From IMG/VR virus record IMGVR_UViG_2671180547_000008: DNA of 6,438 nt, one strand, 5' to 3'. Numbering within the stretch: the stretch's first letter is position 1; each line of letters starts with the position of its first letter. Source of the DNA: a virus (Duplodnaviria > Heunggongvirae > Uroviricota > Caudoviricetes). The notes under the pieces are model-generated. The model was given only the letters and a program-made list of their open reading frames with translations. It was not told where the DNA came from and ran no database searches. Below, piece by piece: positions 1-6,438 of the stretch. A program made the translations under genes and the position numbers.

Positions 1-90
1 ATTTTCTACAATCGTCAGCGTCGTCACTCTCGTCTGGGGAATATCTCCCCGGCAGCCTTCAGGGAAAAATATCATCAGATGGCTGCTTAA
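1..90 (+). CDS. Transposase C-terminal fragment (DDE/integrase-type, partial at window edge)
   Basis: Translation of 1-87 gives IFYNRQRRHSRLGNISPAAFREKYHQMAA, then TAA at 88-90. The YNxxRxHSxLGxxSPxxF pattern is the conserved C-terminal motif of IS3-like DDE transposases. Confidence 0.7.
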   Translation: MFYNRQRRHSRLGNISPAAFREKYHQMAA

Positions 91-133
91 AAAAAGAACA
101 AATGGTAGTGTCCGCTATTGCCAGTACACCTCA
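1..133 (+). mobile_element. Right end of an IS element (IS3-family-like; possibly IS600-like), with the element body lying left of the window
   Basis: Bases 1-133 are the exact reverse complement of 6306-6438, and identity stops at ...ACACCTCA (133), consistent with a TG...CA-type IS terminus. Bases 1-90 encode a transposase C-terminus. The terminal sequence resembles the IS3 terminus as I recall it (GCAATAG.GGACAC). Family assignment is from motif memory only. Confidence 0.7.
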
Positions 134-317
134 GGATAGCGGTCATGTGATGCCGGTTTCCCGGTAACTCAGCACCGGTATCTGAGTCAACGTTTTCTCT
201 ACTGGGTCATTTCCGATACGCCCTGCCTGCTGACAGGCTTTCATCACATCTGAAAATATAGCACCCTGACTGATACTGTAGTACCTAAGGTTCCAGAAAC
301 TGTGATGTATCCGGCAC

Positions 318-345
318 AGAAAAGCCCCTCCGGAGAGGGCTGGAG
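318..345 (-). terminator. Candidate intrinsic terminator downstream of the tRNA genes
   Basis: The minus strand reads GCCCTCTCCGGAGGGGC (GC-rich stem with one bulge, tetraloop) followed by TTTTCTG. It lies about 230 nt 3' of the tRNA-Arg(UCU) end. Confidence 0.3.
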
Positions 346-577
346 AGTGGCGCTATGTGCCATTGCATGATGCCGGGTGCCTCCCGGTGAATTCAGTACC
401 AGCACCTGAATCCGCGATTATCCCATATACCTACTCGCTGATTGCCCCTCCGCACAGGGGGATTCACCATGCCAGTTTCTTTTAACAAACTCCCCGCAAA
501 ACAGACAACTGTCAACCGTCTGAATTGTGAGACATTTAAAAAAAAGGCCCGCAAAAGCGAGCCAGGGAAAATAAGTG

Positions 578-654
578 TGGCGCGTTGTACTGGATTCGAA
601 CCAGTGACCGATTGCTTAGAAGGCAATTGCTCTGTCCGGCTGAGCTAACAACGC
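578..654 (-). tRNA. tRNA-Arg, anticodon UCU (reads the rare AGA codon)
   Basis: The minus-strand sequence GCGTTGTTAGCTCAGCCGGACAGAGCAATTGCCTTCTAAGCAATCGGTCACTGGTTCGAATCCAGTACAACGCGCCA folds as a 77-nt cloverleaf. Acceptor GCGTTGT/ACAACGC, D-stem GCTC/GAGC, anticodon stem ATTGC/GCAAT with loop CTTCTAA, T-arm ACTGG-TTCGAAT-CCAGT, discriminator G and encoded CCA. Confidence 0.9.
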
Positions 655-667
655 ATGATGCAGATAA

Positions 668-744
668 TGGACCGCCATCGGGGACTTGAACCCCGCGCAG
701 CCAGCTTCGAAGGCTGGCGCTCTTTCCTGATGNNNNNNNNNNNN
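668..744 (-). tRNA. tRNA-Arg, anticodon UCG (reads CGA); the 5' end of about 12 nt is hidden in the N-run
   Basis: Visible minus-strand 3' portion: ...GAGCGCCAGCCTTCGAAGCTGGCTGCGCGGGGTTCAAGTCCCCGATGGCGGTCCA. Anticodon stem CCAGC/GCTGG with loop CTTCGAA, T-arm CGGGG-TTCAAGT-CCCCG, acceptor 3' strand ATGGCGG, discriminator T, CCA. The 5' acceptor and D-stem fall in the Ns at 733-760, so the 744 boundary is extrapolated. Confidence 0.7.
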
Positions 745-760
745 NNNNNNNNNNNNNNNN

Positions 761-1733
761 GCCCGAGCGCCAGTGCCGCTTTCACTGTCGAACCCAACCC
801 CATGAAAAAATCTGCAATCAGGTCACCCGGACGACTGCTAGCGCTGATTATCTGCTGCAGCATTTCTGCCGGTTTTTCGCACGGATGTTTCCCGGGATAG
901 AACTGCACCGGTTTATGCGTCCACACATCGGTATACGGCACCTGCACCGTCACGCCAAAATACCGCCGCAGATGTTTATATTCACTCAGCAGCTCCGCAT
1001 ACTGCCGGTTCAGTGAGGTATACGTATCCACCAGCTGGTGGTGGAGCTTTTCCAGTTCACCACGCCGATGCTTCTCTTCTGCCACCCGGGCAAACAGCGC
1101 CTGTAATTTCAGATAATCGCTTTCATTCGGCAACTGCCACTGACCGGCACTGAACCAGTGCGACACCATGTTTTTCTTTCCTGTGGCATCTGCAATCTGT
1201 TTTGCCGTTATCCCCAGGGCAGCTCGCGCATCACGAAAGTAAGAAATCAGCGGGGCCATCACATGCTGTTTCAGTGCACTGCCCTTCGCCGCATACCCGG
1301 CATCTTTCGGACGATACGGCCCCTGATAATGTTCCGCGAACAGAATGCGCTCTGTGGCGGGGAAATACGCCCGCAGGCTTTCCTTGTTGCATCCGTTCCA
1401 GCGTCCGGACGGCTTCGCCCAGATAATATGGTTCAGCACACTGAAGCGTTCACGCATCATGATTTCGATATCAGATGCCAGGCGATGACCACAGAACAGG
1501 TAAAGACTTCCGGCAGGTTTCAGCACCCGCCAGAACTGCGCCAGACACTGGTCCAGCCACTTCAGGTAATCATCGTCGCCCTTCCACTGGTTATCCCAGC
1601 CCTCAGGCTTCACTTTAAAGTACGGCGGGTCCGTGACTATCAGGTCAACAGAATTTTCGGGTAACGACCGGATAAATTCCAGGCAGTCGGCGTTGATTAA
1701 CTCACAACTGGATATTTTTACAGTATTAAGCAT
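761..1733 (-). CDS. Beta-class N6-adenine DNA methyltransferase (phage-type orphan MTase); C-terminus interrupted by the N-run and probably truncated
   Basis: Starts at ATG 1733. DPPY (motif IV) lies near the N-terminus (IVTDPPYF) and the FxGxGST SAM-binding motif I (DFFMGLGSTVKAALALG) near the C-terminus; motif IV before motif I defines the beta class. There is a central HTH-like insert (ITAKQIADATGKKNMVSHWF). The six-frame ORF nominally runs to 645, but only through Ns and across the tRNA, and the post-N translation (IRKERQPSKL...) lacks the expected R-x-IG-x-E continuation. Confidence 0.85.
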
Positions 1734-1869
1734 GGATCATTAAGCCTGTCTCTGATAGGCTCATTCTGCTTTTGCGCAAAGCAGTGGGCCTGAGGTTTGC
1801 TTGTGAACCCAACGCATGAGCAGATGGCTGGTGGGTGCCCCTAACACCCACCAGCCGCCCATTTACCAC

Positions 1870-1897
1870 AAATAAAAAAGCCTTCACTGCGGAAGGC
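1870..1897 (-). terminator. Rho-independent terminator (second terminator in the late leader)
   Basis: Minus-strand stem GCCTTC, loop CGCAGT, stem GAAGGC (plus 1880-1897), followed by TTTTTTATTT (plus 1870-1879 is an A-run). The stop codon of the 65-aa ORF (1884-1886) lies inside the stem. Confidence 0.65.
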
Positions 1898-2081
1898 GTC
1901 TGTAACAACCGAACTGATAGTCTGCCAGACCCGCCATAACCAGCTGGGTCAGTATTAACTGGCAGCGTTCGCGTGAAAGGTAAGTATTCTGCGCTATCTC
2001 CCCGACTGTCGCCGGTTCGGTAACGCTTAATTCATTAAACACCACTCTGGCGGTTTCTGTCATATCCTGCTGTTTTAGCAT
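1884..2081 (-). CDS. Small winged-helix/HTH-like protein (65 aa), uncharacterised
   Basis: ATG at 2081 is preceded by AAGGAA about 7 nt upstream. The segment TVGEIAQNTYLSRERCQLILTQLVMAGLADY resembles an AsnC/MarR-type HTH. It sits between the tR'-like terminator and the second terminator, directly upstream of the MTase. Confidence 0.5.
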   Translation of the reverse strand: MLKQQDMTETARVVFNELSVTEPATVGEIAQNTYLSRERCQLILTQLVMAGLADYQFGCYRRLPQ

Positions 2082-2197
2082 GTCTTTTCCTTTTCCGGTT
2101 AACGTGACACACCAATAACTCTTGTCGAAAAAGCCAGCAAGCTGAAAGACAGGTATTCACCGCCACCAGCGCGTTTACTGTACTGACGCGATTTCAG

Positions 2198-2225
2198 TCA
2201 TAAAAAACCCGCTCGGCGGCGGGTT
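2198..2225 (-). terminator. tR'-like rho-independent terminator downstream of the Q-like gene
   Basis: The minus strand reads AACCCGC-CGCCGA-GCGGGTT (7-bp GC-rich stem) followed by TTTTATG. It lies about 45-65 nt downstream of the predicted PR'-like start. Confidence 0.7.
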
Positions 2226-2272
2226 GTAGAAACTCTTCTAACGTCAGGCATAAAACGCCCATCGTTATAACG

Positions 2273-2300
2273 AATTTACCACAGATTCCGGAAAAATCAA
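2273..2300 (-). promoter_or_regulatory. PR'-like late promoter immediately 3' of the Q-like gene
   Basis: Minus strand has -35 TTGATT (plus 2295-2300), a 16-nt spacer and -10 TAAATT (plus 2273-2278). The -35 directly abuts the stop codon of the Q-like gene (2306-2308), the same geometry as Q/PR' in lambdoid phages. Confidence 0.45.
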
Positions 2301-2305
2301 CCTTG

Positions 2306-3127
2306 TTACCTAGTTACCTTTTTTAACTGCCGCTCAGCCCATGCTTCTTCAATATCAAACCGGGTCACCAGCGCATCATAAAATTTCTTAACTGTTTTTT
2401 CCCATGACGCGCGTGTTATCTGGTTTGTCACCTCGCATATAGCATTAAATGCCTCCGTTGATGGTAGTCTTTCATAGCCACGACCACCACAACGCTGGCA
2501 GTCTCTGATAACAGGCATACCACGTTTTACCGACTCTTCACGATGAATGGCGACACCACGCCCACGGCAATCCTTACAGGCGGTGGAAACCTCACCCTTT
2601 CCGCCACACTCCGGACAGGCAACTTTTACCACCTCCCTGACTTTTTTCCATTCTTCCCAGTAAGACGGATACACACCTTTCGTACACTTTGCCCATACCG
2701 GCGGCTTACCATCCGGATACTGGATCTTGTTTGTAAAAACCTCGCTTTCAATAAATTTTTTTCCGTGACAGCAGGGGCACTGTTTTTTGCTCGCCGCGCT
2801 ACGGGCATAATCTTCAAACGCATACGAAGCCATAATACGCATCACTGCCGGTTTTATTTCTGCCGGGAGTTTTCTTAACGCCGCCACGCGATCACACCGA
2901 CTGAGTGCATATTCTGTCAGCAATTCTGTTGCCCGCTCTCTGTCATTCATACTAATGCCCATTTTCCCAAGGAACGCAGAAACCCCCATCTCAGCCCGAT
3001 TCTGTGTCATGCCCTGCGCGGCCATCACATCAGTGATACTCAGCGCATCTTTCGACGTTGAGGCCGATGCATCAGTCAGGCCGGGGGATTTTGGGGAGTA
3101 GTATTTCGGTAAATCTTCCAGTTTCAT
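2306..3127 (-). CDS. Putative late-gene antiterminator (Q-like, QuuQ-type) with repeated CxxCxGxG zinc-finger motifs
   Basis: 273-aa ORF. Its ATG (3127-3125) overlaps the rusA stop as ATGA. It carries one CPCC and three CxxCxGxG motifs (CPECGGKG, CKDCRGRG, CQRCGGRG). Position after rusA and before a promoter-terminator pair matches Q genes of lambdoid phages. Identity is inferred from synteny and motifs, not alignment. Confidence 0.5.
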   Translation of the reverse strand: MKLEDLPKYYSPKSPGLTDASASTSKDALSITDVMAAQGMTQNRAEMGVSAFLGKMGISMNDRERATELLTEYALSRCDRVAALRKLPAEIKPAVMRIMASYAFEDYARSAASKKQCPCCHGKKFIESEVFTNKIQYPDGKPPVWAKCTKGVYPSYWEEWKKVREVVKVACPECGGKGEVSTACKDCRGRGVAIHREESVKRGMPVIRDCQRCGGRGYERLPSTEAFNAICEVTNQITRASWEKTVKKFYDALVTRFDIEEAWAERQLKKVTR

Positions 3128-3504
3128 TTTTTGACCTGCCCTTCAAGCATTATGGGATAAATCTTCACCCCCAGACGTCCACCAGATACTGGCTGAGCAC
3201 GAACGATATTGATTTCATCAAACTGCTCATCGTCCATTAGCAACCCCGCATGCGTCAGCGCATCCAGCGGCGCTTTCAGAATATTGTCCAGGTCACGGCG
3301 GCGCTTATCCGGTGGTTCTGCAATAATTTTTATTGCCAACCTTCCGGACAGGCTTAATTTCAGCCGCTGCTGGCGAACAATAAGCGCCACTGCCCGGCGA
3401 TAACGCTCCCCGGCTTTTGATACAAAATATGTGCTGCCACGACGACGCCAGTAAGTGTTCACCGTCGGCGGGTAAGGTAAAACAAATTCTATGCGCTCGG
3501 TCAT
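3124..3504 (-). CDS. rusA: RusA-type Holliday junction resolvase (crossover junction endodeoxyribonuclease)
   Basis: The 126-aa product has LPYPPTVNTYWRRRG, DKRRRDLDNILKAPLDALTHAGLLMDDEQ and VSGGRLGVKIY, which match the recalled RusA signature blocks ([48 protein letters not shown]). Its start follows the DUF968 stop directly (TAAATG). Confidence 0.9.
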   Translation of the reverse strand: MTERIEFVLPYPPTVNTYWRRRGSTYFVSKAGERYRRAVALIVRQQRLKLSLSGRLAIKIIAEPPDKRRRDLDNILKAPLDALTHAGLLMDDEQFDEINIVRAQPVSGGRLGVKIYPIMLEGQVKK

Positions 3505-4563
3505 TTATGCTTTCCACTTCAGAACACCCGAATTTCTCGCGTGCATTAAAAAACGAATCAGCAACAACAGCTGACTGCCGTGTTTCTCTTCAAAATCTTT
3601 TACTCCGGCATGTAGTTCGTTACGGCATTTACGGCATAACGGAATAACAAACAAATCATCAGCCTTTGTTCCCATCCCTCCCAGTCCATGACCAATGATG
3701 TGATGCGGATCATCTGCCTGATTGCCACACGTCATGCATTTCTGCGTTTTTACCCAGCGCGTGTATACAGGCATCTCTTCCCGTTGTGATTTCTGGCGCT
3801 GGAGATACTGAGCCGGTGACTCCGGATCAACGGCAATGCTGACCACCGTCTTTTCCTGTGGTGGGTTCTGTTGCTGGTGGACGTGAGGCAGTAACGCAAT
3901 ATTTTTTGTGCGCTGCTTCAGTATGCTGGTGGCTGTCTGCTCTCCCGGTATGATGTCGCTTTCACTGTACACAGAGCGAATTTTTTCCGCACGCAACCCC
4001 AGCGAACGACGTAATACCGCTTCCGGTAGCGCGTCCGCCACCTGATTGCGGACCGCCCACCAGGATAATTCAGCCAGAGATAATTCACGCTCCTGCGTAC
4101 CGCTTATTGCGTGACCGATGACGTCAATCATCCATGCTGACAGGTTTTGATGAGCAAGTTGCTCGAGTGATTCGGATGTCTGGTCACGCAGCTGGTTGTC
4201 GCAGTGCCAGCACAACACCATTGCGCCGGTACCATAACGGTGAATGACGGTTTCGCTGTGATGATAATCGCCGTGTGGCCACTGGCAGGATTTAATATGG
4301 CGCAACAGCCAGTCAGACAATGCACCAGCACCACCAGCAGCACGAATCACCCGTGCGTTACTGAAAAACGGCAGCAATGTTTTGTCTTCCACCAGCGGCT
4401 GGCGAGCGGCAGGAACGACCCCGGACGGCAGATTACGCATGCTTTTTGGTTCCGGCTCCACCAGTATTCTGCCGTTATGGAATGCTGACATTGATTCACG
4501 GCCTGGCTTAACGATAACCAGACCGAGTTCCGGTACCAGAACAGGTCGAAGTAATACCCGCAC
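3505..4563 (-). CDS. DUF968-like prophage protein (YdfU-like) with a C-terminal HNH/zinc-binding-like motif
   Basis: 352-codon ORF starting with GTG at 4563, 4 nt after GGAGG; an alternative ATG at 4491 gives MSAFHNGRIL. The C-terminus has CMTCGNQADDPHHIIGHGLGGMGTKADDLFVIPLCRKCRNELH (CxxC...HH...CxxC...H). Size and position between a small gene and rusA/Q match ydfU in Qin-like prophages as I recall them. Confidence 0.6.
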   Translation of the reverse strand: MRVLLRPVLVPELGLVIVKPGRESMSAFHNGRILVEPEPKSMRNLPSGVVPAARQPLVEDKTLLPFFSNARVIRAAGGAGALSDWLLRHIKSCQWPHGDYHHSETVIHRYGTGAMVLCWHCDNQLRDQTSESLEQLAHQNLSAWMIDVIGHAISGTQERELSLAELSWWAVRNQVADALPEAVLRRSLGLRAEKIRSVYSESDIIPGEQTATSILKQRTKNIALLPHVHQQQNPPQEKTVVSIAVDPESPAQYLQRQKSQREEMPVYTRWVKTQKCMTCGNQADDPHHIIGHGLGGMGTKADDLFVIPLCRKCRNELHAGVKDFEEKHGSQLLLLIRFLMHARNSGVLKWKA

Positions 4564-4564
4564 A

Positions 4565-4920
4565 TTACCTCCAGATCCGTTGCTGGAATGTGCGGGACGG
4601 ACGCGTTGGCCGTTCGGAGTAAGGGAGCCTGACGGAGATTATCCAGTGACGGTAGTCGAGGCTAAGGGCTTTTTTAACCTCGCATCCGCGCCTGCGGTAA
4701 CACTGAATGAGCCATTCGGCCTGTTCTTCAGTGCATGGGGGATGCTGGTACCAATCAGATTTAAATGCGTGAGAGCGCCGCCCGTGCCTGCTGGCAAAGA
4801 CGGCTGAATTATCAGAATTGTGTAGTCTGGAAGGCAGTGGCTGACAATAGCGCCATTCTCAACGCGCACAGTATAGAGGCCATCTTCACTAAAAATTTCA
4901 CGTAATTCTTCGATTTTCAT
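4565..4920 (-). pseudogene. Small nin-region gene with a frame discontinuity (rem-position gene); an intact 93-aa frame runs 4639-4920 but looks degenerate after about 40 aa
   Basis: ATG at 4920 has GGAAGGA 8 nt upstream. Frame 0 reads MKIEELREIFSEDGLYTVRVENGAIVSHCLPDYTILIIQPS, then turns low-complexity (LPAGTGGALTHLNLIGTS...). A second frame with no start codon reads ...TEEQAEWLIQCYRRRGCEVKKALSLDYRHWIISVRLPYSERP... and ends with TAA at 4565-4567, overlapping the DUF968 start region (GGAGGTAATGTG). Confidence 0.4.
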
Positions 4921-5003
4921 CAACAGAATCCTTCCAGATAAATAGCACTCCCCTGTTCGGGGTCCATCCCTCTTCTCCCTGCGCGCTACTTAAGTATTTT
5001 TGA

Positions 5004-5032
5004 TTCTATTCCGGCACCATCTAAAACTTCAA
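5004..5032 (-). promoter_or_regulatory. Candidate sigma70 promoter for the nin-like operon (small gene, DUF968, rusA, Q)
   Basis: Minus strand has -35 TTGAAG (plus 5027-5032), an 18-nt spacer and -10 TAGAAT (plus 5004-5009). It lies between the hok terminator and the RBS of the 4920 gene. Confidence 0.35.
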
Positions 5033-5040
5033 ACGCGTTG

Positions 5041-5071
5041 AAAATAAAAACAAAAACCCGCCGAAGCGGGT
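5041..5071 (-). terminator. Rho-independent terminator of the hok transcript
   Basis: The minus strand reads ACCCGC-TTCG-GCGGGT followed by TTTTGTTTTTATTTT. It lies about 75 nt 3' of the hokD stop. Confidence 0.7.
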
Positions 5072-5140
5072 TAAGTGTGGGTGCATTGAGGATGCCTGCC
5101 CCATCAGAGGTGGCGAGGGATTTCTCCCCCGCCTGGTCTC

Positions 5141-5296
5141 TTACTCCTCAGGTTCGTAAGCTGTGAAGACAGCGACCTCCGTCTGGCCGGTTCGAATTCG
5201 TACCTCGCAGAGGTCTTTCCTCGTTACCAGTGCCGTCACTATGACGGTTAAACAGATGACGATCAGGGCGATTAACATCGCCTTTTGCTGCTTCAT
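5141..5296 (-). CDS. hokD: Hok-family type I toxin (HokD/RelF-like, 51 aa)
   Basis: The product MKQQKAMLIALIVICLTVIVTALVTRKDLCEVRIRTGQTEVAVFTAYEPEE has the Hok single transmembrane helix and the conserved C-terminal pattern (compare Hok ...[26 protein letters not shown]), and matches my recollection of E. coli HokD. An in-frame upstream ATG at 5353 (MNGKSRLASYVPKGKEKQA-) occupies the position of the mok start in the R1 hok/sok leader. Confidence 0.9.
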   Translation of the reverse strand: MKQQKAMLIALIVICLTVIVTALVTRKDLCEVRIRTGQTEVAVFTAYEPEE

Positions 5297-5344
5297 AGCC
5301 TGCTTCTCCTTGCCTTTCGGCACGTAAGAGGCTAACCTAGATTT

Positions 5345-5425
5345 GCCGTTCATAGATTGAGCCTCAGATTAATGTTAAGCGTCTTGCCGGACGCGTAATG
5401 TTAACTGGGGCTTTTCTCTATCTGC
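5345..5425 (+). ncRNA. Candidate Sok-like antisense RNA with its promoter (-35 at 5310-5315, -10 at 5333-5338)
   Basis: The plus strand has TTGCCT, a 17-nt spacer and TAACCT, which aligns by recollection with the R1 sok promoter (TTGCGC, 17 nt, TATCCT). The predicted transcript is antisense to the mok-like start region and ends in a U-rich stretch (GGGGCTTTTCTCTATCTGCCTTTTGG). Exact 5' and 3' ends are not determined. Confidence 0.35.
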
Positions 5426-5472
5426 CTTTTGGTGTTCATGCCTGAGACAGATAGCCTCAAGCACCCGCTGCA

Positions 5473-5501
5473 ATTCTACTTAACTCTCCTTTTCCCGCAA
5501 A
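5473..5501 (-). promoter_or_regulatory. Candidate hok mRNA promoter
   Basis: Minus strand has -35 TTTGCG (plus 5496-5501), a 17-nt spacer and -10 TAGAAT (plus 5473-5478), followed by GCTTGAGGCTATCTG, which resembles the recalled 5' end of R1 hok mRNA (GCGCTTGAGGCTTTCTG). Confidence 0.4.
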
Positions 5502-5507
5502 CCGTTT

Positions 5508-5591
5508 TTATCCCCAGCGGCAAATCGAATACACCACCAGCGCCACCGCCATCGCAATTCCTACCGTTGTTAATGCTTCAGGCCAGGTCAT
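5508..5591 (-). CDS. 27-codon hydrophobic micro-ORF, translationally coupled to the 114-aa ORF
   Basis: Its ATG (5591-5589) overlaps the TGA stop (5590-5588) of the upstream ORF as ATGA. The product [27 protein letters not shown] has an 18-residue hydrophobic core with a basic/aromatic C-terminal cap, as in small membrane peptides. Below the ORF-track length cutoff. No homology evidence. Confidence 0.3.
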
Positions 5592-5932
5592 CGTAAAATA
5601 TCCTCCACGCTTATCAGTCCGTTCCGCTCCAGATAACTCATCGCCTTATCCGGTAATTTGCAGTCTGGCTTCGCTTTCCTCAGTTGCCAGGTTAACTGCT
5701 TTACCAGCATGGTTAACTCATCGACCAGACGCTGATATCCCACTGGTTTGTATTCATGCAATTTACCGGCTGGCTCTGCTGCCAGCGATACCAGTGCGAT
5801 TTCCAGAACAGCAATATCCATCTTATATGTGCGGATGATGTCATGGTCGATTGTGCCCGGTATGCACAGTCTCTGTGCTTCAATAGTCTCCTCTGCGTGA
5901 GCTATTAACTGCTCTCTGGTAAAAGTCGTCAT
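5588..5932 (-). CDS. Hypothetical protein (114 aa), paralogous to the upstream 55-aa ORF
   Basis: Its ATG overlaps the stop of the upstream ORF (ATGA at 5932-5929). The N-terminus MTTFTREQL... and the block [10 protein letters not shown]...EYK match MTTITKERI... and [10 protein letters not shown]...EKY in the 55-aa ORF. Amino-acid composition is protein-like. Confidence 0.55.
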
Positions 5933-6096
5933 GCCGTAGCCCCTTCTTGATATTTTTCAAACCAGAACACAACCGGCTCTGCTTCCAGCGATGCCAGCGC
6001 AATCCGTGCCAGTTCCATTTGTTCACCACGGGTAAGCCCGTTTTCAAGCGGGTTTTTAATGAACAATTCAATACGTTCTTTGGTAATAGTGGTCAT
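5929..6096 (-). CDS. Hypothetical small protein (55 aa), first gene of the coupled trio
   Basis: ATG at 6096 is preceded by a strong SD (TAAGGAG, 6 nt spacer). The product is [55 protein letters not shown] and its stop overlaps the next ATG. Not in the ORF track (under 60 aa). Confidence 0.45.
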
Positions 6097-6106
6097 GTGT
6101 TACTCC

Positions 6107-6305
6107 TTAACCCGCAGTGCTTTCAACTGATGAGGGGAACAAAATCTTTTCATCAAACCCTGCATTCATATCATGAACAGCAACACACCAATCCATCGAC
6201 GAACGATTATCAAGAGCCTCCATGATTTCATCCATGCGGCGTAGGTCATACAGGTAAATGCTTTTATCGCCAATGGTGTAAAAGCCAATTTTTTTCGGTG
6301 ATGGA
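6107..6305 (-). pseudogene. 3' remnant of a gene truncated by the right-hand IS insertion
   Basis: The frame runs from the IS junction to TAA at 6107-6109: ...KKIGFYTIGDKSIYLYDLRRMDEIMEALDNRSSMDWCVAVHDMNAGFDEKILFPSSVESTAG. The track ORF 6107-6337 only finds an ATG inside the IS, so the N-terminus is IS-derived. The SD of the next gene overlaps its stop, so it was once the upstream gene of that operon. Confidence 0.4.
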
Positions 6306-6438
6306 TGAGGTGTACTGGCAATAGCGGACACTACCATTTGTTCTTTTTTTAAGCAGCCATCTGATGATATTTTTCCCTGAAGGCTGCCGGGGAGATATTC
6401 CCCAGACGAGAGTGACGACGCTGACGATTGTAGAAAAT
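6306..6438 (-). mobile_element. Right end of a second, inverted copy of the same IS element, with the element body lying right of the window
   Basis: Exact reverse complement of 1-133. The plus strand begins TGAGGTGTACTGGCAATAGCGGACAC at 6306. Confidence 0.7.
6349..6438 (-). CDS. Transposase C-terminal fragment (partial at window edge), identical to the copy at 1-90
   Basis: Mirror image of 1-90; the stop codon is at 6349-6351 on the minus strand. Confidence 0.7.
   Translation of the reverse strand: MFYNRQRRHSRLGNISPAAFREKYHQMAA

Follow-up and report, generated by a model that had tools for sequence, protein, structure and literature searches.

Does a prophage segment bracketed by two inverted ends of the same insertion sequence (IS) form a mobile unit, or was it enclosed by two IS copies that arrived separately? 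The question is raised by a 6,438-nt stretch of viral DNA (the window, analyzed over its whole length), and our answer is that two independent transpositions of IS600 very probably made the bracket around a nin/Q/methyltransferase/tRNA block that belongs to a degraded lambdoid prophage. A preliminary description, made from the letters of the window, had taken its two ends for perfect reverse complements, each carrying the 3' end of a transposase gene and an IS terminus. Sequence comparison bore this out: bases 1-133 and 6306-6438 are 100% reverse complements forming a 133-nt inverted repeat, and both arms match the final 133 nt of IS600 (IS3 family, 1264 bp) at 100% identity, which identifies the element. 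The last 29 codons and the stop of the IS600 transposase orfB are encoded by bases 1-90 (IFYNRQRRHSRLGNISPAAFREKYHQMAA, followed by the stop codon), and the IS600 terminus (...CACCTCA) falls exactly at window base 133, with the terminus of the other arm exactly at base 6306.

An exact-protein look-up with the chimeric junction ORF gave 795 blocks of the collection, of which the 25 longest contigs were read; 10 loci from these contigs (4.78-5.03 Mb) are shown. The window junctions recur in complete Shigella sonnei chromosomes (records CP060117, UKMCC1015, and CP022457, 2015C-3566), in a prophage remnant adjoining ompW. A full 1264-bp IS600 stands on both sides of the block in eight of the 10 loci, and all four IS600 junctions were verified with exact strings; at locus L004, full copy A (nin side) occupies positions 8769-10032 and full copy B (tRNA side) positions 16398-17661. 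The longer context that the preliminary description had proposed for recovering the elements thus holds both of them, 1264 bp each, as two distinct inverted copies with their right ends inward. The full copies in L004-L013 are 1264 bp long and 99.2-99.9% identical to IS600, and their ends read TGAGGT...ACCTCA, with a TG start and a CA finish; the left and right repeats have the terminal TGAGGT and an internal CGGACACT in common and differ between these. The full-copy transposase in the complete genomes is 385 aa long, or is split into orfA (100 aa) and orfB (272 aa). It contains HTH_Tnp_1 and rve domains and carries the RefSeq annotation 'programmed frameshift', and both the -1 frameshift and the DDE transposase of IS600 are found in complete genomes, as is the 3-bp target-site duplication.

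The stop of both arms after precisely 133 nt, together with the N gap, points to a draft assembly and would fit an artefact, of assembly or of windowing, that derives from one IS copy alone, the outcome that the preliminary description had itself named as fatal to its view. A single IS has one right end, whereas the right end is used at both junctions, and two full copies are read through in complete chromosomes and in a 21.5-kb IMG/VR contig. The two full copies in complete chromosomes exclude such an artefact, to which we give virtually no probability. The symmetric 133-nt truncation most likely reflects short-read contig ends inside a repeat, and the window is presumably a whole contig or scaffold. 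For 325 of the 795 blocks, the longest junction-bearing contig measures 5-10 kb, a size that breakage of short-read assemblies in IS600 would produce.

The window covers part of a decayed, lambda-like S. sonnei prophage that is integrated next to ompW (Table 1). The prophage genes follow the lambdoid order (hok, DUF968, RusA, Q, methyltransferase, tRNAs, SASA esterase, holin), and this order is shared with E. coli TUM10008 (collinear, 97% identity) and with phage records. The genome has three tRNAs, of which the window holds one complete, tRNA-Arg(TCT), because the 28-N run stands for 221 nt; these contain the 5' end of tRNA-Arg(TCG), a CAT-anticodon tRNA (Met/Ile2 type) and the methyltransferase gene's final 86 nt. 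The integrase at the locus is reduced to its last 319 nt, adjoining ompW, and no xis, repressor, recombination or replication genes were found between ompW and copy A. The prophage is defective, as the preliminary description had stated, mainly through the absence from the locus of the 5' part of int and of the immunity and replication genes; the defect does not lie at the left IS, and the late genes persist beyond copy B. PPompW-type EHEC prophages (LC567822.1) share with the remnant the attachment site and the integrase 3' end (~96% over 573 nt) and a homologous hok-rem-ydfU-rusA block (91%), but they have complete int, xis, immunity, replication and morphogenesis genes, which the S. sonnei remnant lacks at the locus. 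The remnant also has a different Q, and its methyltransferase/tRNA/STnc100/SASA late region is like that of TUM10008.

Table 1 Features of the window (positions in nt; L004, L005 and L010 are S. sonnei loci used for comparison).
Feature	Position	Strand	Evidence or remark
3' end of IS600 copy B (tRNA side), right inverted repeat to base 133	1..133	+	
GGA, inner copy of the 3-bp target-site duplication of copy B	134..136	.	L004 vs L005, L010
STnc100-family prophage sRNA, between tRNAs and late genes	312..501	-	Rfam RF02076, 123.6 bits, full length
tRNA-Arg (TCT)	578..654	-	
tRNA-Arg (TCG), 3' 65 nt, remainder under N-run	668..732	-	L004 15787-15863 corresponds to window 668 onward
28-N run replacing 221 nt of real sequence	733..760	.	
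N6/N4 DNA methyltransferase gene, 352 codons in complete genomes, 3' end in N-run	761..1733	-	PF01555
Late-gene antiterminator Q, 273 aa	2306..3127	-	PF03589
RusA Holliday-junction resolvase	3124..3504	-	PF05866
DUF968/YdfU protein	3505..4563	-	PF06147
Junction of 250-bp deletion, rem gene removed	4832..4833	.	Relative to S. sonnei L005, L010
hok/sok type I toxin-antitoxin module	5141..5466	-	PF01848; RF01794, 112.4 bits
Two small nin-region ORFs, 114 and 55 aa	5588..6096	-	No family match (Pfam scan)
3' 199 nt of 87-codon ORF cut by copy A	6107..6305	-	Target triplet GGA at 6303-6305
3' end of IS600 copy A (nin side), right end inward	6306..6438	-	

Copy B represents a simple insertion into intergenic DNA, which left a 3-bp duplication. 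In L004 it is flanked as TCC-IS600-TCC, and L005 and L010 carry the empty site with a single TCC (...CGCTATCCTTCCAGG...); the proposed search for target-site duplications thus ends, for this copy, with a duplication of its own. The insertion lies downstream of the tRNAs and the STnc100 sRNA, and there is no gene at the empty site in L005 and L010. The claim that both flanking genes are cut stands for the gene at 6107-6305 and falls for the left IS. The expected late cargo, described as absent, is merely outside the window: a SASA-family esterase gene and a holin gene come directly after copy B in complete genomes. No stx genes occur at the position of copy B in the empty-site strains (L005 and L010), so none was removed by this IS600. 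We suggest that copy B, the younger of the two and missing from some strains, would have entered by copy-out/paste-in insertion into the stretch that separates the tRNA/STnc100 region from the late genes, the latter continuing intact beyond it.

Copy A is found in every locus examined, and L005 and L010 carry this copy only. The gene next to it, a 264-nt ORF where it is intact (E. coli TUM10008, L002 13976-14239), is down to its 3' 199 nt here, which upholds the reading that it has lost its 5' part; the 76-codon ORF at 6107-6337 is a chimera running into IS600 and gave no match in a Pfam scan. The first 65 nt of the interrupted ORF survive ~3.5 kb away, inverted and fused to the integrase 3' stub. 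This displaced 5' fragment (L004 6543-6614) is preceded by the same GGA, the target triplet being found both at the right-end flank of copy A and on the fragment. The GGA at L004 6543 directly follows integrase sequence ending at PPompW position 573, and the ORF spanning the fusion matches positions 100-169 of 172 of the Phage_integrase profile; DUF977 begins at profile position 13 (Pfam scan). Microhomology was looked for at the integrase/GGA joint and none was found; if an IS ever stood between the integrase stub and the 5' fragment, IEE-type IS excision with flanking deletion would be one possible route to this joint. The two flanks of copy A differ (TTT vs TCC), and in L012 and the IMG/VR contig L018 unrelated DNA lies outside it. 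Copy A would be the older insertion, into the 87-codon nin-region ORF, and its left-end flank would have been rearranged afterwards, when the block from DUF977 to the ORF 5' end was inverted and joined to the 319-nt remainder of the integrase gene. We infer both the mechanism of this rearrangement and the order of events. Something akin to intramolecular transposition may have helped to invert the DUF977 block that lies outside copy A.

The IS600 pair is not a composite transposon, and its inverted geometry is a by-product of IS expansion. The preliminary description had considered the architecture composite-transposon-like and able to mobilize the block, and the same IS does occur twice around a cargo block, each copy being intact with a 385-aa frameshift transposase. 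That the two IS600 copies and the 6.4-kb block were inserted, or can move, as a functional unit is nonetheless highly improbable: the outer flanks (...AATTTT-IS600 and IS600-TCCTTCC...) present TTT on one side and TCC on the other, with no target duplication around the unit, and copy B has its own duplication and is missing from L005 and L010, from which it follows that the pair did not arrive as a unit. Neither multiple sites nor acquisition in one piece came to light; a search of 5426 complete E. coli genomes and of the GTDB species-representative genomes (Shigella is not in either set as such) gave no hit for either junction, and in a whole-window plasmid search no interior match ran on into the IS arms. 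The outer ends are, moreover, both left ends, whereas the circle junction of IS3-family elements normally joins a right and a left end. A single intramolecular transposition, through a replicative event or an IS dimer junction that inverts the enclosed segment, has even less probability. Such events yield inverted IS copies around an inverted segment, and the target triplet GGA (window + strand) is present at both inner flanks, although a common triplet is a coincidence of ~1 in 32 or could reflect target preference. The enclosed block keeps its native orientation with respect to both attL/int and the late genes. Copy B stands between direct 3-bp repeats, and L005 and L010 show its empty site in collinear form; on this duplication and empty site a one-step origin was rejected.

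Two independent insertions, the reading we prefer, leave the question of what the copies do now. Their sole expected activity would be to serve as 1.26-kb homologous repeats for RecA-type recombination, and such use is seen at copy A, where the outer flank differs in two assemblies. It is conceivable, and very unlikely, that recombination between the inverted copies works as a switch, turning the Q-methyltransferase-tRNA block around in part of the cells. The copies are 1264 bp long, 99.8-100% identical and about 6.4 kb apart; copy A has recombined with other loci in L012 and L018; and copies A and B are identical in L004 while differing in other strains, which could reflect gene conversion but may also stem from consensus polishing of repeats. 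Against the switch, the inverted isomer is present in none of the 10 arrangements shown from the ~25 long contigs, nor in L018, all of these assemblies having a single orientation, so that the inversion suggested in the preliminary description finds no counterpart in this sample, although rare isomers may exist beyond it. A shade less probable again is a RecA-dependent, reversible inversion of this segment in some S. sonnei cells, which would couple Q and its promoter to, or uncouple them from, the esterase and holin genes.

The locus resembles known systems to different degrees. IS600 is among the five IS that are expanded in all Shigella, with the highest recent activity in S. sonnei (PMC7373316). 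The Shigella IS600 insertions (Hawkey et al. 2020, PMC7373316) match the present case in the element itself (99-100% identity), in a 3-bp duplication such as that of copy B, in gene interruption, in serving as a recombination substrate and in strain-to-strain presence or absence in S. sonnei; there is no substantial difference, and the locus is one of several hundred IS sites per chromosome. In the defective Stx prophage of Shigella dysenteriae type 1, IS600 lies beside the stx genes (PMC7819885). This prophage is likewise a lambdoid remnant cut down to a Q/late-region block with IS600 adjoining, while the present remnant is without stx and lies at ompW, not at sapC/ychK. McDonough and Butterton reportedly described in 1999 that IS600 copies bracket the stx operon and drive its amplification and deletion. 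The copies here are inverted, not direct, and recombination between them would therefore invert the block, not amplify or delete it. In the composite transposon Tn6330, the ISApl1 copies are direct and the element is bounded by a target duplication. Tn6330 (ISApl1-mcr-1-ISApl1) is presented as a composite transposon made from a copy-out/paste-in IS (PMC5821093), and the megacircle of an IS2-like IS3-family composite element carries one of its two IS copies (PMC6350997). Both systems share with the present locus one IS in two copies around a cargo segment; here, in contrast, the copies are inverted and separately acquired, no outer duplication exists and no second location was found.

IS expansion in Shigella is already well described, and the bracket is an ordinary product of genome decay by IS, with no new mobile element involved. 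The case illustrates how IS600 expansion fragments S. sonnei prophages, matters little beyond bookkeeping and bears on no open question. It does explain short-read contigs of about 6 kb with mirrored IS fragments at their ends; whether a strain has copy B could be used as a lineage marker, and the two 1.26-kb inverted repeats are potential inversion substrates. The left junction is present on five IMG/VR contigs, two of which (L015 and L019) tie it to a different Q region.

Self-comparison of the window showed that bases 1-133 match the reverse complement of 6306-6438 perfectly, as the preliminary description had it, with no other repeats longer than 29 nt in the window. Bases 1-90 translate to the C-terminus of a transposase with its stop codon. 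Thousands of E. coli and Shigella records contain a 100% match to the arm at the 3' end of IS600, which names the element. A full reference IS600 copy (locus L001, 870-2133; 1264 bp, TGAGGTAGCC...CACCTCA) placed the IS terminus exactly at window base 133 and, on the opposite side, at 6306; therefore, all that either window end contains of an IS600 is its final 133 nt, right end inward. Given the symmetric 133-nt ends, the run of Ns that falls within repeated tRNA genes and the mostly 5-10 kb junction contigs, we infer that the window is a short-read scaffold broken inside a multicopy IS.

The ORF at 6107-6337 joins the cut gene to IS sequence, and this chimera therefore served as an exact-match junction probe of the assembly collection, where it is indexed in 795 blocks; the longest carrier contig exceeded 1 Mb in 83 of these and was 5-10 kb in 325. 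The 25 longest carrier contigs were examined, and ten places are shown (contigs of 4.78-5.03 Mb). Two accessions, CP060117 and CP022457, are named in papers as Shigella sonnei UKMCC1015 and S. sonnei 2015C-3566. The window is 99.93-100% identical to the complete-genome loci, and neither IS600 junction occurs in the complete E. coli genomes, plasmids and species-representative genomes searched. In eight of the ten loci shown, the block is bracketed by two full-length IS600 copies with intact transposases, copy A at the nin side and copy B at the tRNA side, and exact-string checks confirmed all four IS junctions in seven long-assembly loci (L004, L006-L009, L011 and L013).

Features of locus L004, used for the layout and listed in order (its + strand corresponds to the window's - strand), and of the window interior
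Feature	Sequence	Coordinates	Strand	Remark
ompW and attachment site	L004			
Last 319 nt of PPompW-type integrase	L004			
GGA and first 65 nt of cut ORF	L004	6543-6614 (65 nt)		inverted
DUF4014, small ORF, IS1, DUF977	L004			DUF977 without about 11 codons
IS600 copy A	L004	8769-10032	+	
Window interior	L004			
IS600 copy B	L004	16398-17661	-	
SASA-family esterase and holin	L004			
STnc100 sRNA	window	312-501	-	Rfam, full-length match, 123.6 bits
tRNA-Arg(TCT)	window	578-654	-	
tRNA-Arg(TCG)	window		-	partial
N6/N4 DNA methyltransferase	window		-	
65-aa ORF	window		-	
Antiterminator Q	window		-	
RusA	window		-	
DUF968/YdfU protein	window		-	
hok/sok	window		-	
Two small ORFs	window		-	
3' 199 nt of 87-codon ORF	window		-	

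The gene order in the window is collinear with lambdoid prophages, and the best complete E. coli match, TUM10008, is 97% identical across 320-6305. The methyltransferase-tRNA arrangement is common to the window and Stx2-phage records. STnc100 lies in the stretch that separates the tRNAs from the late genes, which in Stx phages holds stx. The 28 Ns at 733-760 take the place of 221 nt that all the complete genomes have, among them one tRNA with a CAT anticodon, the 5' end of tRNA-Arg(TCG) and the methyltransferase gene's final 86 nt; since the length is not conserved, the run seems to be a gap left by scaffolding and not bases masked in place. At 4832/4833, a clean 250-bp deletion, with no obvious repeat at its breakpoints, removes the rem gene in the window lineage relative to S. 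sonnei loci L005 and L010.

Copy B is a simple insertion into intergenic DNA with a 3-bp duplication: its flanks read ...CGCTATCC-IS-TCCTTCCAGG..., and the empty site in L005 and L010 is an uninterrupted ...CGCTATCCTTCCAGG... Some S. sonnei strains have this copy and others lack it. No sequence was lost here, and the esterase and holin genes lie directly beyond it; the late cargo taken to be absent is thus only seemingly so, an effect of the window edge. Of the two flanking genes described as cut, the 87-codon ORF is interrupted by copy A, whereas copy B is intergenic. A third IS600 in L005 and L010 (20108-20231), oriented like copy B, cuts the lysis region short behind holin, DUF1327 and a 56-aa ORF. 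Where a strain also has copy B, the two would flank esterase and holin as direct repeats, and recombination could delete these genes. In the IMG/VR contigs L015 and L019, the IS600-GGATAGCGG junction is joined to a Q region of only 94% identity and to duplicated methyltransferase/tRNA modules, suggesting that paralogous prophage remnants have recombined via this IS600 or its flank.

At its right-end junction, copy A still sits where it inserted into the 87-codon ORF, but its left side is rearranged, since it adjoins DUF977 with the flank TTT, not TCC. The 5' fragment of the cut ORF, with the same GGA triplet in front, lies inverted directly after integrase sequence ending at position 573 of PPompW, an EHEC lambdoid prophage at ompW; hence, the DUF977-to-ORF block runs opposite to attL and to the remainder of the prophage. 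The integrase-GGA joint has no microhomology, because PPompW itself continues TCATCC there. No IS is present at the joint of this fusion (L004 6224-6700, outside the window), whose position coincides exactly with the triplet that was once the IS target. The joint might have arisen when inverted IS600 copies recombined and one of them was then lost along with its flank. The int 5' part, xis, and the recombination, immunity and replication genes are absent from this locus, so the prophage is indeed defective. The inverted DUF977-DUF4014 block contains an IS1 (L004 7134-8251) with a partial internal duplication of the transposase region, giving two overlapping InsA/InsB-like ORF sets; the extra segment is missing from L005.

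The IS pair has the geometry of the composite-transposon-like architecture proposed for it, but lacks the defining features. A target-site duplication exists at copy B, whereas the outer flanks of the pair, TTT and TCC, are not duplicates; the two copies were gained at different times; and no IS600-block-IS600 unit was found at any other site in complete E. coli genomes, plasmids or species-representative genomes. Moreover, the outer ends of the putative unit would be two left ends, and in IS3-family elements a right end is normally joined to a left end at the circle junction; the one IS3-family composite considered for comparison forms a circle that includes just one of its pair of IS copies (PMC6350997).

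The preliminary description read the sequence correctly, but what it describes is ordinary IS-driven prophage decay of an already documented kind. All Shigella species share an expansion of five IS, IS600 among them, and Shigella reference chromosomes each have 229-348 IS insertions; recent IS activity is highest in S. sonnei (PMC7373316). In S. dysenteriae 1, IS600 was already known beside the toxin genes of a prophage that, like the one here, is defective and lambdoid (PMC7819885).

Neither the ten places shown from the 25 longest contigs nor the IMG/VR contig L018 has the enclosed block flipped. Beyond the left end of copy A, two independent assemblies, L012 (1-8768) and L018 (8619-10847), share a stretch of unrelated DNA with Dam, resolvase and small ORFs in place of DUF977. 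This indicates a larger rearrangement with its breakpoint in copy A, by recombination of that copy with another locus. Copies A and B differ at positions 126 and/or 980 in L006, L009 and L012; in L004 there is no difference between them, and both have a T551A change private to that locus. This could reflect gene conversion between the copies or repeat homogenisation during assembly polishing.
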